DNA of 64,000 bases from an uncultured Chryseobacterium sp. (GCA_966211705.1 CBIHOC010000024.1:9319-73318); one strand, 5' to 3'; positions 4,965 to 9,832 are shown, counted from the first letter of the stretch. Notes: generated by a model from the letters alone, not told the origin. Translations and numbers: made by a program.

Positions 4965-5040
4965 GTCTCCGCGTCCTCCGCGCCGCTGCGGCAAAAAATC
5001 AAGGATGAAATTTGCCGCAGAGGCGCAGGGAGCGCAGAGG
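4965..5040. repeat. Intergenic palindromic element (cctccgcgccgctgcggcaaaaaa...tttgccgcagaggcgcagggagcgcagagg) between sufE and the DUF59 gene
   Basis: Inverted repeat seen in the sequence. Shares the core ctgcggcaaaaaa / gccgca(a/g)aggcgcag with the element at 9768-9832. Confidence 0.4.
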
Positions 5041-5043
5041 TGT

Positions 5044-5463
5044 TTATGTTTTTGAACTCAATGCCAAAGCATCCATTTTCATTTGTTTCACCATCGACAG
5101 CAGGCCGTTGGAGCGGGTGGGCGAGAGGTGCTCTTTCAGACCGATCCTGTCGATGAACATGAGCGGCGCGTCCACGATCTCTTTCGGCGGATGGCCGGAA
5201 AGCACGCGCACCATCAGCGCCACCATTCCTTTCGTGATGATCGCGTCGCTGTCGGCGTGGTAAATGACTTTCCCGTCCTCCAGCTCCGTGTACAGCCACA
5301 CGCGGCTCTGGCAGCCTTTGATGAGGCGGTCGTCCGTTTTGTACCGCTCGTCCAGCGGCGGTAACGATTTCCCCAGGTCGATAATATACTGGTACTTATC
5401 GTCCCACTGGTCGAACATGGAAAACTCGTCCACGATTTCCGCTTCTGTTTCCGCGATGGTCAT
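5044..5463 (-). CDS. sufE: Cysteine desulfuration sulfur-acceptor protein SufE
   Basis: SufE motif LIKGCQSRVWL with the conserved Cys, 139 aa, located in the suf operon. Confidence 0.85.
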   Translation of the reverse strand: MTIAETEAEIVDEFSMFDQWDDKYQYIIDLGKSLPPLDERYKTDDRLIKGCQSRVWLYTELEDGKVIYHADSDAIITKGMVALMVRVLSGHPPKEIVDAPLMFIDRIGLKEHLSPTRSNGLLSMVKQMKMDALALSSKT

Positions 5464-5464
5464 T

Positions 5465-6004
5465 TTACTCCTGGAATAAAACGATTTCGTGCACTTTCAT
5501 TTTTATTGCTTTGTTCTTCGCCTTTTCTGAGATCGGGTATTTTGCCTCGACCGGGACGATGAATTTAATTCCGTCATATTGCTTGATCATGGTGACGCCA
5601 GTGGAATACCATGCGACATCGCCGTACTTATCAACAACGTCCTGCATCGTGGAAACATCCGGAACAATTCCTTTATCCGAAACACCGTTAAACGGGTGGC
5701 GTACGTGGATCGCAAAGAAGACGTCTTTGCCGGGCTTTGAGTAAAAAGAAAGTCCGAGTTTTTCGTATCGCTGCTGGACGGAATAGAGCGTGTCGCTGCC
5801 GTCGGACTTTTTGATATAGTGACTGATCAACTTGAAATCGTCACCATATTTCAGTGTCACCTCCGTGCGGGTTGTTTGCCCGAGGATGACCTCATTGTCG
5901 ATTCCTTTTCCCGGAACCAGCTGGTGCTGCTCTTCCGCCATGAAGGATAAGAAAGAAACGGCTGCGATGAAAAGCAGGAGCGTGCTGAGGAGAGCCTTTT
6001 TCAC
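5465..6004 (-). CDS. Hypothetical secreted protein embedded in the suf operon
   Basis: N-terminal signal peptide MKKALLSTLLLFIAAVSFLSF and no recognised domain. Overlaps neighbours by 1-4 nt, as in an operon. Confidence 0.5.
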   Translation of the reverse strand: MKKALLSTLLLFIAAVSFLSFMAEEQHQLVPGKGIDNEVILGQTTRTEVTLKYGDDFKLISHYIKKSDGSDTLYSVQQRYEKLGLSFYSKPGKDVFFAIHVRHPFNGVSDKGIVPDVSTMQDVVDKYGDVAWYSTGVTMIKQYDGIKFIVPVEAKYPISEKAKNKAIKMKVHEIVLFQE

Positions 6005-7694: not shown

Positions 7695-8992
7695 TTGAGC
7701 AGGTCGTCAATGCGTTTGTCGATGTATTCCCGCAACGCATCGATCTTTACGTGGTTCACCACTTCTTCCGCAAACGCGCGGATGAGCAGCGCGTGGGCAT
7801 CTTCTTTGCCGATGCCGCGTGAGCGAAGATAGAACAGCGATTCCTCGTCGATGCGGCCGGTGGAAGTTCCGTGCGAGCACTTCACGTCGTCGGCGTAGAT
7901 CTCGAGCTGCGGCTTCGTGTTCACCGTTGCGTCGTCGCTGAGAAGAATGTTGCGGTTGGTCTGGAATGCGTTCGTTTTCTGCGCGTCGGGGCGGACGAAA
8001 ATTTTGCCGTTGAATACCGCCGTTGCTTTCCCGCTGATGACGCCTTTGTACAGCTCGTTGCTCATGCAGCCGGGAACCTTGTGGTCGACGACCGTATGGT
8101 TGTCCGCAACCTGCGTTCCATCGAGCAGGTACAACCCGAACAAATGCGCTTCCCCGTTCCTGCCGCTCATCACGACTTCGAGGTTGTTGCGCACCCACGT
8201 GCCGCCGAGGATGAATGTGTACGTATTGTACAGCGCGTTCGCGGCGACATCCGCCTGCACGGTGCTGAGCAATTGGCCGGATTCTCCGCCTTCCTGGATG
8301 CGGTAATGGTCGAGCTTCCCGCCGGGAGCAATGGCGATCTCCGCCAGCGCGTTGTTGAAGGAACGCACCGGGCCGATCGTTTCGAACGATTCGATGATCG
8401 TCGCCTGCGCGTTTTCTTCGATCACGACGAGGTTGCGCGGCTGGAAAAAAGCTTCGGTCTCGTTGTCGGTAATGTGAAGCAGGTGGAACGGTTTTTCAGC
8501 CACGGCATTTTTCGCGGCATGGATGAACACGCCGCCTTCGTTCAGCGCGGTGTTCAGCGCAGCGAACGGGTCTTTGTCCACCGGCGTAAATTTCGCGTAA
8601 TGCTGCTGCGCGCGCTTGTCTGACGCAACGGCATCGGCGATGCTGTTTACCGTTACGCCCGCAGGCAATTCGTCCTTCGAAGAAAGTTCCGGCACGAAGA
8701 TGCCGTTGACGATCACCAGCACGTGCGCCTCCTTCACGATCACCAGCTTTTCAATATCCGAAGCGGCGATGCCGCGCATCAGTTCCGTGCGGAAGCCGAG
8801 CTCTTTTTTGAAGAGCGTGTCGGGGGCGATGTATTTGTAATCTTCGGAACGCCGCGTGGGAAAGCCGTTCTCCGAAAAGAAACGCGCCGCATCCTTGCGC
8901 AGGGCCGCATCGCCGTAAAGCGAAGGAAGACGCTGCGTGAAATGCGCGAGAAGCTGTTCTTTAAATGTCGTTTTTTCTGCCGTGGTGCTCAT
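7691..8992 (-). CDS. sufD: Fe-S cluster assembly protein SufD
   Basis: 433 aa in the SufB/SufD family (C-terminal beta-helix region ...GTSTGRIDEESLFYLRSRGI). Lies between sufC and sufS. Confidence 0.85.
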   Translation of the reverse strand: MSTTAEKTTFKEQLLAHFTQRLPSLYGDAALRKDAARFFSENGFPTRRSEDYKYIAPDTLFKKELGFRTELMRGIAASDIEKLVIVKEAHVLVIVNGIFVPELSSKDELPAGVTVNSIADAVASDKRAQQHYAKFTPVDKDPFAALNTALNEGGVFIHAAKNAVAEKPFHLLHITDNETEAFFQPRNLVVIEENAQATIIESFETIGPVRSFNNALAEIAIAPGGKLDHYRIQEGGESGQLLSTVQADVAANALYNTYTFILGGTWVRNNLEVVMSGRNGEAHLFGLYLLDGTQVADNHTVVDHKVPGCMSNELYKGVISGKATAVFNGKIFVRPDAQKTNAFQTNRNILLSDDATVNTKPQLEIYADDVKCSHGTSTGRIDEESLFYLRSRGIGKEDAHALLIRAFAEEVVNHVKIDALREYIDKRIDDLLK

Positions 8993-8995
8993 ACG

Positions 8996-9751
8996 TTATG
9001 CCCCAACCGTTTCTGCCTTGATCCAATCGTATCCTTTTTCTTCCAGCTCGAGCGCGAGCTCTTTTGTGCCCGACTTCACGATGCGCCCGTTGTAGAGCAC
9101 GTGCACGAAATCAGGGACGATGTAATCGAGCAGGCGCTGGTAGTGCGTGACGACGATGAACGAACGTTCCGGGCTGCGGAGCTTGTTCACCCCGCCGGCC
9201 ACGATGCGCAGCGCGTCGATGTCGAGGCCGGAATCGGTTTCGTCGAGGATGCCCAGCGTCGGTTCGAGCATGGCCATCTGGAAGATCTCGTTGCGTTTCT
9301 TTTCCCCGCCGGAAAATCCTTCGTTCACGGAGCGTCCGGCCAGCGTTGCGTCGAGCTCGACGAGCTTCTGCTTCTCTTTGACGAGGGCGAGGAATTCTTT
9401 CGCGCCGATCGGCTCAAGACCGCGGTATTCGCGGATGCTGTTGATCGCCGTCTTCAGGAAGTTGATGTTGCTCACGCCGGGAATTTCCACGGGATACTGG
9501 AAGGCGAGGAACAAGCCTTCGCGCGCGCGGTCTTCGGGAGAAAGGTCGAGCAGGTTTTTTCCTTTGAACGTCACTTCGCCTTCCGTCACGTCGTACGCTT
9601 CACGTCCCGCGAGAACGGATGCGAGCGTGCTTTTCCCGGAACCGTTCGGCCCCATGATGGCGTGCACTTCGCCGGCTTTGACTTCAAGGTTCAGTCCGCG
9701 GAGGATTTCTTTTCCTTCGACGGATGCGTGGAGATTTTTTATGGAGATCAT
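8996..9751 (-). CDS. sufC: Fe-S cluster assembly ATPase SufC
   Basis: Walker A GPNGSGKST, ABC signature FSGGEKKRNEI, Walker B LGILDETDSGLD. 251 aa. Confidence 0.95.
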   Translation of the reverse strand: MISIKNLHASVEGKEILRGLNLEVKAGEVHAIMGPNGSGKSTLASVLAGREAYDVTEGEVTFKGKNLLDLSPEDRAREGLFLAFQYPVEIPGVSNINFLKTAINSIREYRGLEPIGAKEFLALVKEKQKLVELDATLAGRSVNEGFSGGEKKRNEIFQMAMLEPTLGILDETDSGLDIDALRIVAGGVNKLRSPERSFIVVTHYQRLLDYIVPDFVHVLYNGRIVKSGTKELALELEEKGYDWIKAETVGA

Positions 9752-9767
9752 AGTTCTTTGCGATAAA

Positions 9768-9832
9768 CTCTGCGCTCTCTGCGCCTCTGCGGCAAAAAAA
9801 TGTTCGCCGCAAAGGCGCAGAGGACGCGGAGG
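9768..9832. repeat. Intergenic palindromic element (ctctgcgctctctgcgcctctgcggcaaaaaaa...gccgcaaaggcgcagaggacgcggagg) between sufB and sufC
   Basis: Inverted repeat read in the sequence and related to the 4965-5040 element. Located inside the operon, not at its end. Confidence 0.4.

Follow-up and report, generated by a model that had tools for sequence, protein, structure and literature searches.

The window analysed here, a stretch of 64,000 nucleotides from an uncultured Chryseobacterium sp. (GCA_966211705.1, CBIHOC010000024.1:9319-73318), carries a suf operon for Fe-S cluster biogenesis. The genes sufA, sufB, sufC, sufD, sufS and sufE and a SufT-like gene of the FeS_assembly_P/DUF59 family are found together with two open reading frames (ORFs) of no assigned family. 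Most junctions in this cluster are overlaps or a few bases long. Two of them are long, the sufE/DUF59 spacer with 91 nt (4953-5043) and the sufB/sufC spacer with 84 nt (9752-9835). Each long spacer is occupied by a palindrome, here called E1 and E2, to within a few bases of where a preliminary description of this DNA had placed them. Our analysis shows that both are copies of one dispersed, non-coding palindromic repeat, which probably acts as a non-terminating hairpin between cistrons.

E1 and E2 are imperfect palindromes of 64-73 nt with the same architecture. Each arm consists of one purine-rich unit of 26 nt, GCCGCAGAGGCGCAGAGRRCGCRGAG, in which three tandem CRCNNAG modules follow each other at a spacing of 8-9 nt. 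The unit reads GCCGCAGAG-GCGCAGAG-RRCGCRGAG on the purine strand and CTCTGCGC-TCTCTGCGC-CTCTGCGGC on the pyrimidine strand. Two inverted units form a hairpin of 25-29 bp, and both units have their GCCGC end next to the A/T run of the loop. On the sense strand, E1 begins 4 nt past the TAA of sufE (5044-5046) and leaves 14 nt to the ATG of the DUF59 gene (4950-4952). Similarly, E2 begins 4 nt past the TAA of sufB (9836-9838) and leaves 16 nt to the ATG of sufC (9749-9751). The stable hairpins expected in the preliminary description are found upon folding: the sense RNA of E1 is predicted at -52.2 kcal/mol (z -7.6) and that of E2 at -50.3 kcal/mol (z -9.1), and none of 200 shuffles folded as stably. 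Two independent metagenome assemblies of the species (L001 and L002) contain E2 without a single base change, and it is thus not an assembly artefact.

The two elements share a core that is rare in the window. An exact match to CTGCGGCAAAAAA is observed twice in the 64 kb, once in E1 and once in E2 (0.23 expected). With up to two mismatches, GCCGCARAGGCGCAG is observed four times, exactly at the four arms of E1 and E2 (0.6 expected), a number reached in 0 of 100 shuffles. The shared core noticed earlier is therefore real, and so is the relatedness of the two elements, while the direct register in which they had been aligned has to be replaced. In direct register the arms agree at 21/26 and 21/26 positions. 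In inverted register, the left arm of E1 matches the reverse complement of the right arm of E2 at 23/26 positions, and the right arm of E1 matches the reverse complement of the left arm of E2 at 25/26. Each arm fits its own partner less well than this best value (20/26 in E1, 22/26 in E2). By these alignments, E1 is an inverted copy of E2 and not a direct duplicate. Since arm-specific mismatches are common to both elements, an already imperfect palindrome must have been copied, and two independent origins are ruled out. We also considered a composite transposon, in which the right arm of E1 and the left arm of E2 (25/26 complementary) would bracket sufC to sufE. This idea was dropped as unnecessary, because inverted copying explains both arm pairs and the bracketed genes are ordinary suf genes, syntenic in relatives.

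Further copies were sought in the window by a hairpin scan and a module regular expression. Four to six copies of the unit are found, the variants differing from the E1/E2 unit by transitions, and shuffled windows contain no three-module unit. The module consensus across the window copies is C-R-C-N-N-A-G. One sister copy (44001-44062) lies between sdhA/frdA (42020-43996) and sdhB (44080-44823), where a perfect 25-bp stem, CTCCGTGCCTCCGTGTCTCCGTGGT / ACCACGGAGACACGGAGGCACGGAG, is built from CTCCGTG x3 and CACGGAG x3. It starts 4 nt past a TAA and ends 17 nt before an ATG. A common geometry is therefore observed in three copies (E1, E2 and 44001), namely TAA, 4 nt, hairpin, 14-17 nt and ATG, and in the predicted folds of all three the downstream start regions are left unpaired. 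With a copy between sdhA and sdhB, the element is clearly not confined to suf. A second sister copy at 16610-16733 sits between two co-directional minus-strand genes and pairs CTTTGTGCCTTCGTGCCTTTGTGGC with GCCACAAAGACACGAAGGCACAAAG across a 74-nt loop, with CTTTGTG/CTTCGTG modules. The copy at 3919-4025 lies between convergent genes, a PorP/SprF gene at 2804-3838 (plus) and an ORF at 4027-4536 (minus). It pairs ACCACTGAGAGCACAGAGGA with TCCTCTGTGACCTCAGTGGT, has CACAGAG/CACTGAG modules and contains an inner CACAGAG hairpin. Where the suf cluster ends, between the DUF59 gene and the next ORF, a degenerate modular hairpin (4537-4622) pairs GAGGGACG with (C/T)GTCTCA modules. Its plus strand folds at -39.8 kcal/mol (z -5.1) through many G.U pairs and its minus strand at -19.6 kcal/mol. 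Apart from sdhA and sdhB, the neighbours of the unit in the window include a BT2802-family gene and other unrelated genes. Tandem Repeats Finder reports a period of 8-9 with 2.9-3.5 copies in E2, 16610 and 44001, and the arms are periodic at p<=0.01 against shuffled arms in the hairpins 16610, 44001, 22753 and 46871. The coordinates are given in Table 1.

Table 1. Modular palindromes and host genes in the 64-kb window.
Feature	Position	Strand	Basis or remark
E1, modular palindrome, sufE/DUF59 spacer	4967-5039	minus	pairs I5 (97%), I18 (86%), fold
E1 parts	left arm 4967-4992; loop 4993-5013 (21 nt); right arm 5014-5039		
E2, modular palindrome, sufB/sufC spacer	9768-9831	minus	pair I22, fold
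E2 parts	left arm 9768-9793; A/T-rich loop 9794-9805 (12 nt); right arm 9806-9831		
Sister element, sdhA/sdhB spacer	44001-44062	plus	pair I19, fold -56.8 kcal/mol, z -12.5
Sister element	16610-16733	minus	pair I13, minus-strand fold -63.6 kcal/mol
Nested element, 'conv' arrangement	3919-4025	n/a	folds -57.3 and -51.7 kcal/mol
Degenerate modular hairpin, DUF59/next ORF spacer, end of suf cluster	4537-4622	plus	TCTCACG x4.4
suf cluster hosting E1 and E2	4623-11652	minus	Pfam assignment of ORFs
sufA	11326-11652	minus	Pfam
sufB	9836-11299	minus	Pfam
sufC	8996-9751	minus	Pfam
sufD	7691-8992	minus	Pfam
orf150 (150 aa)	7242-7694	minus	without family
sufS	6001-7245	minus	Pfam
orf179 (179 aa)	5465-6004	minus	without family
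sufE	5044-5463	minus	Pfam
FeS_assembly_P/DUF59 (SufT-like)	4623-4952	minus	Pfam

The arms of these hairpins appear to change by gain and loss of whole modules, as expected for replication slippage. This is suggested by a comparison of the window with L001, both being metagenome assemblies, which are 99.76% identical over 12.95 kb with 23 substitutions and a single indel. The indel is one 8-nt module, CACAAAGG (16625-16632), in one arm of the 16610 hairpin; L001 lacks this module. A separate observation concerns the substitutions, 20 of which (20/23) are clustered in ~200 nt of sufS (6814-7018), at the contig end of L001. Such a cluster points to recombination of this segment or to mixed strains in the assembly.

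A comparison with 80 related suf loci (72-85% SufC identity) indicates when E1 and E2 arrived. A spacer was called structured when it folded at or below -20 kcal/mol. The sufB/sufC spacer has 12 nt in the closest relative (85% SufC identity) and is shorter than 50 nt and unstructured in about half of the related loci; it reaches at least 60 nt in 25/68 and is structured in 14/68. Of 26 relatives, most have a sufE/DUF59 spacer that does not exceed ~20 nt, and an E1-type element is absent from this junction in all 26. Because relatives are usually without the element at both junctions and their spacers are short or unstructured, E1 and E2 are taken as gains of this lineage. Structured spacers elsewhere in the cluster amount to 8/70 for sufC/sufD, 8/48 for sufD/sufS, 2/29 for sufS/sufE, 0/22 for sufE/DUF59 and 4/19 for sufA/sufB. 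The earlier remark that long spacers are unusual in Fe-S operons thus holds for sufS/sufE and sufE/DUF59, which are nearly always tight, and does not hold for sufB/sufC and the other junctions. Many spacers of relatives have the same hairpin architecture built from unrelated units (ATTTATG x3, GAAGAAT, GGTCATC), and 16/47 long hairpins from the window and related Bacteroidota loci have a significant 7-9-nt periodicity of their arms. In the sufB/sufC spacers of two other Bacteroidota (L154 and L169), a repeat of the type CCCCCTAACCCCCTGAAGGGGGAA and its relatives form hairpins of -65 to -70 kcal/mol.

Copies in other genomes were searched in the GTDB species genomes with a 22-nt core pattern, GCCGCARAGGCGCAGRGRRCGC. 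It is found in at least 115 stretches from at least 10 phyla, while our composition-based estimate of chance matches is ~1, or at most a few tens (range 1-36) if all genomes had 70% G+C. Among the matches listed are Myxococcales and Beta- and Gammaproteobacteria, including the isolates Undibacterium macrobrachii, U. amnicola, U. seohonense, Undibacterium spp. Ji22W and Di24W, and Thioalkalivibrio denitrificans. Planctomycetota, Verrucomicrobiota, Acidobacteriota, Chloroflexota (including a closed 4.87-Mb chromosome), Bacteroidota (Saprospirales, Kapaibacteriota), Elusimicrobia, Auribacterota and Pelosinus are listed as well. Many of the matching loci come from single metagenome-assembled genomes (MAGs), for example CALFNG01 of Myxococcales and JANYFV01 of Undibacterium. 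A T-run precedes the unit in the matches listed, and 67 of them have an inverted partner 13-141 nt away; this context is beyond what chance would give. Loops between paired arms, 12-141 nt long when the window is included, are unrelated in sequence across copies.

All 67 pairs (67/67) among the matches listed are in the 'conv' polarity, where the purine arm comes first and GCCGC lies at the stem base. The 'div' polarity, with the pyrimidine arm first and GCCGC at the loop, is observed in four clear window copies and in one related suf spacer (L180). The A/T run stays beside the GCCGC end in both polarities. The conserved entity is thus a polar unit with its tail. Among 50 classifiable copies in other genomes, 21 lie between convergent, 27 between co-directional and 2 between divergent genes; 48/50 follow at least one gene end, at a median distance of ~26 nt to the stop. 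In a Chromatiales MAG, at least 4 copies of a ~320-nt composite, one element nested in the loop of another, are 97-99% identical. Orthologous copies in two Undibacterium species are ~98% identical including the loop, while their flanks are 86-90% identical. Taken together with the arm asymmetries inherited by E1 and E2, the further copies in the window and the lineage-specific gains, the many copies in other genomes agree with the view of the preliminary description that this is one repeated element and not a set of independent hairpins.

Nothing recurrent is found beside the copies that could carry them. The core pattern has 0 matches in 2.9 million viral contigs, so that nothing points to phages as vectors. 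All-vs-all clustering of the ORFs in 115 loci (<=8 kb) around copies gave no recurrent transposase-like ORF; the recurrent clusters that were checked are GGDEF, acyl-CoA dehydrogenase, EF-Tu-like GTPase and LpxC/FabZ, all of them families of housekeeping or signalling function. An annotated plasmid collection, queried with the whole suf region, returned distant suf operons only and nothing on repeats. Two observations were made on the way. In a Bacteroidetes MAG (L022, 7691-7878), the unit and ~29 nt of flank make up an array of at least four tandem copies in one orientation, with a period of ~55 nt and without hairpin. A second widespread repeat, ATTCCCGCG(A/T)AGGCGGGAAT, is found in the loops of two Undibacterium copies (L081 and L110) and in the sufB/sufC spacer of L157. 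It is preceded by GTC, so that its start is GTCATTCCC, and it resembles dRS3 / CGTC-1; here repeats of different families are nested.

From these data we consider, with a probability of about 0.6, that E1 and E2 are a dispersed non-coding palindromic repeat, similar to repetitive extragenic palindromic (REP) sequences and bacterial interspersed mosaic elements (BIMEs) and to STRR (short tandemly repeated repetitive) sequences, and that they act as non-terminating intercistronic hairpins. An already imperfect palindrome was copied, the copies arriving in spacers that most relatives have short and unstructured, and the arms then change by whole modules. E1 and E2 would be transcribed within the polycistronic suf mRNA as hairpins of about -50 kcal/mol, and in the absence of a U-tract transcription should continue through them. 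The near-continuous duplex of 20-29 bp would probably block 3'-to-5' exonucleases and/or be a substrate of RNase III, for which its length suffices. Either event would give different decay rates to the sufAB, sufC-sufE and DUF59 segments of the mRNA. Moreover, the stem begins 4 nt past the stop codon, so a terminating ribosome would have to melt the hairpin, which would probably tie its state to translation of the upstream cistron and couple the two cistrons. Otherwise the element may be a tolerated passenger. A role in differential mRNA stability, as proposed in the preliminary description, is plausible for E1 and E2 given the stable hairpins, the lack of a U-tract and the lack of a terminator call.

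Several points weigh against this reading. We infer every functional property of E1 and E2. The copies of the source genome were counted within 64 kb. The window polarity is reversed with respect to all 67 paired copies listed from other genomes, so that homology across phyla rests on the 26-nt unit and its A/T tail and not on an alignment of whole elements. A mobilising enzyme, a tag and a target-site duplication were all looked for and none was found. Furthermore, E1, E2 and 16610 fold better on the sense strand by 4-12 kcal/mol, while 4537-4622 folds better on the antisense strand by 20 kcal/mol. With three copies on the sense and one strongly on the antisense side, the G.U asymmetry was not used as a sign of selection at the RNA level. 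The pairing of 4537-4622 on the plus strand only, which is antisense to suf, could reflect strand-biased transitions or a role as antisense or single-stranded DNA.

Alternatively, the repeat could be selfish or neutral with no effect on suf, the surviving insertions being those that fell just past stop codons in short, non-overlapping spacers. We regard this account as possible, though doubtful. The suf junctions of most relatives are without elements, so suf works without them, the unit is common to unrelated operons and phyla, and 4537-4622 is decaying and pairs on the antisense strand only. It does not easily explain why orthologous Undibacterium copies are better preserved, loop included, than their flanks, nor why the 'stop + 4 nt ... 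14-17 nt + ATG' geometry is observed three times, and a hairpin of -50 kcal/mol would probably have some effect on the mRNA that contains it. The same hairpins could be thought to divide the suf cluster into transcription units as intrinsic terminators or attenuators, since very stable GC-rich stems stand right after stop codons and copies elsewhere lie at gene ends, often between convergent genes. We consider such a function quite improbable. On the sense strand no U-tract is found past the stem of E2 (GUUUAUCGC), E1 (ACUUCGAAAAAAA) or 44001 (AAAAACAAC), a consensus terminator scan calls none of the three, the 14-17 nt before the next start contain no promoter-like site, and the sister copy separates sdhA and sdhB, which encode subunits of one enzyme. 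A site dedicated to suf, such as an operator of IscR, Fur or another Fe-S-responsive regulator or a cis-acting iron-responsive RNA, would agree with a palindrome present twice in one Fe-S cluster biogenesis operon. Its likelihood is close to nil in our view, because the unit is also found between sdhA and sdhB, by the BT2802-family gene, between unrelated genes and in many phyla, because the suf operons of relatives are without it, and because no Rfam family matches.

Concerning its origin, the repeat could be a REP or REPIN (paired, inverted REP units) mobilised by a REP-associated tyrosine transposase (RAYT; TnpA-REP, HUH-Y1), or a MITE (miniature inverted-repeat transposable element) moved by a DDE transposase encoded elsewhere. 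Inverted pairs are found as intergenic hairpins in several copies per genome, the nested and composite copies of the Chromatiales MAG are nearly identical, and Y1 classes flanked by structures other than GTAG have been reported (PMC6006769). We nevertheless judge this unlikely. The unit by itself forms no stem-loop and lacks a GTAG/GTGG or CGTC tag at its ends, no consistent target-site duplication is seen, the loops are unrelated and 13-141 nt long in the matches listed, the 115 loci contain no recurrent transposase-like ORF, and the viral contigs contain no copy. The elements could also have grown in place by local slippage duplication and palindrome-templated correction, their similarity being convergence on a favoured module. 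The whole-module indel between strains, the 16/47 long hairpins with 7-9-nt periodic arms of many unrelated units and the documented slippage of heptamers (PMC4679880) would fit. We find this scarcely probable, because convergence does not predict the arm-specific mismatches common to E1 and E2 (25/26 and 23/26), and exact identity over 22 nt with an A/T tail in at least 115 stretches is too specific.

If E1 and E2 are indeed a dispersed repeat, the long structured suf spacers are insertions of a genome-wide repeat and not a dedicated regulatory device for Fe-S biogenesis. Any effect on the ratio of sufAB, sufCDSE and sufT would be incidental or co-opted, and sdhAB would be expected to show it too. 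The unit is sharply defined and searchable in many phyla, with no known tag or spreading enzyme. Shine-Dalgarno-led initiation is largely lacking in Bacteroidota. The regular placement of the element makes it a natural test case for the part of intercistronic hairpins in the decay of polycistronic mRNA and in translational coupling in this phylum, and further for the spread of REP-like DNA without RAYT and for the growth and shrinkage of tandem-module arms by slippage.

Some features of the surroundings are added here. The two ORFs without family, orf150 and orf179, are embedded in the suf operon with start and stop codons overlapping their neighbours, neither has a match in Pfam or NCBIfam, and the gene calls of L001 and L002 include orf150. 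The 16610-16733 element is flanked by a ~24-nt direct repeat, GATGGAAATTGGTTTCCC(C)GGTGA in minus-strand reading (~16573-16597 and ~16737-16761). This repeat holds its own small stem-loop; it may be a small repeat in its own right or a target duplication of long size. Other strong intergenic hairpins of the window lie at 22753-22843, 46871-46917, 16110-16147, 47609-47676 and 26672-26837. Two of them have periodic arms made from different units (TTCAAAGA; TTTGGGA/TTTGGAA), and one is a 36-nt inverted repeat with copies 94 nt apart. Two others have non-periodic stems of 17-25 bp: the perfect stem at 16110 separates thiL from a convergent 118-aa ORF, and 47609 has 23/25 pairs. Two very large ORFs, 1-2786 and 48087-56417 (plus), consist of ~228-nt (76-aa) tandem repeats of the SprB-repeat type. 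Their presence near the PorP/SprF-family gene of the type IX secretion system (T9SS) suggests a gliding or T9SS-bearing member of Bacteroidota.

The element was compared with known classes of repeats and sites. Its resemblance to the DnaA box, Chi, uptake signal sequences and boxA is weak. At gathering thresholds, Rfam gave 0 matches for the whole window; at relaxed thresholds, only generic miRNA-precursor hairpin models appeared, with 13-24 bits against gathering values of 70-118. With REP, BIME and REPIN sequences the element shares the character of short GC-rich intergenic palindromes, made of inverted unit pairs, placed after stop codons and within operons, without a U-tract. As with REPs and REPINs, a genome has several intergenic copies (four to six within the 64 kb here), and many copies are paired in inverse orientation (67 pairs among the matches listed). 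The strict REP class is rejected, since the unit is no stem-loop and has no GTAG/CGTC tag. A REP unit is its own stem-loop (stem 7-20 bp, loop 2-5 nt), whereas the unit here is a 26-nt triple direct repeat without internal palindrome, and a hairpin is formed only between two inverted units. REPs have the tag GT[AG]G/CGTC at the stem foot, while the flanks of E1 and E2 (AATC before and TTTAT after; ACAC before and ACTTC after) and the GCCGC ends are without it. Within some arms CGTC is present, and only there, but it is not a constant feature of the copies. GTAG-type REPs are tied to a RAYT gene, and none is seen within the loci of <=8 kb around copies. The stems of 25-29 bp are ~2x as long as those of REPs and are candidate RNase III substrates. 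For REPs in E. coli operons (e.g. malE-malF), protection of mRNA 3' ends, attenuation and effects on translation near stop codons have been proposed. By analogy, we liken the effect of E1 and E2 to these intra-operon REP/BIME sequences and to the STRR hairpin of hupS-hupL discussed below. REP families occur in 8 phyla, some without a transposase (PMC3733652), and for some Y1 classes from Bacteroidetes, Planctomycetes and Acidobacteria, atypical flanking structures that lack GTAG are reported (PMC6006769); both papers also give background on REPs.

A likeness to MITEs is seen in terminal inverted repeats of ~26 nt around a short non-coding core, and in nested copies that are 97-99% identical within one genome. 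However, the internal sequence is not conserved, the 'ends' face the loop in the window, and no related autonomous insertion sequence was found. No consistent direct repeat is observed as a target-site duplication at E1, E2 and 44001, only 16610 having its ~24-nt repeat, and the flanks of paired copies elsewhere extend the palindrome (TTT…AAA) without direct repetition. A typical MITE is therefore rejected for want of a target duplication and a conserved interior. A canonical terminator is rejected by the missing U-tract and the negative scan, and a suf-specific operator by the unit in the sdh operon and in other phyla.

Closer in build are the tandem-repeat hairpins. A cyanobacterial STRR heptamer hairpin lies between hupS and hupL, with a proposed function in transcript stabilisation or translational coupling (PMC2670836). 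Arms of tandem ~7-bp repeats between cistrons of one operon are common to both systems. As in STRRs, the arms consist of tandem 5-11-nt units (period 8-9 here) and the copy number changes by whole units (the 8-nt module, in metagenome assemblies). STRRs are heptamers of other sequence from filamentous cyanobacteria, while here ~3 CRCNNAG modules of 8-9 nt per arm are found in a Bacteroidota host and in at least 10 phyla. Direct repeats of the heptamer TAACTGA and other long simple-sequence repeats of 5-11 nt are slippage-prone and common to several phyla (PMC4679880). They resemble our element as short intergenic tandem units that are patchily distributed (Beggiatoaceae, Cyanobacteria, Bacteroidetes), by no known route of transfer and with slippage proposed, and relatives often have shorter, repeat-free spacers (PMC4679880). 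The TAACTGA arrays are direct, mostly upstream of starts and without hairpin, whereas E1-type elements are inverted pairs downstream of stops.

Tentatively, we suggest that CRCNNAG palindromes may form a coherent undescribed super-family in at least 10 phyla, with a polar triple module and A/T tail, in either polarity, within ~30 nt of stop codons and spreading without RAYT or transposase; we hold this for possible and not for probable. Within such a super-family, the unit may spread by slippage and template switching or through a trans-acting factor that reads the 8-9-nt modules. Alternatively, its role may lie at the RNA level, for example as RNase III entry sites, or the pyrimidine arm may present arrays of RNA polymerase pause motifs (G-10/Y-1/G+1-like). 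Our literature search by sequence strings of the unit, which was limited, did not find a description of a three-CRCNNAG unit. Slippage-prone 7-nt tandem repeats, patchy spread across phyla, intercistronic tandem-repeat hairpins and REP super-families are already known. Within the reach of that search, this unit of three CRCNNAG modules with an A/T tail, in two polarities and at least 10 phyla, appears to be a new addition to them.

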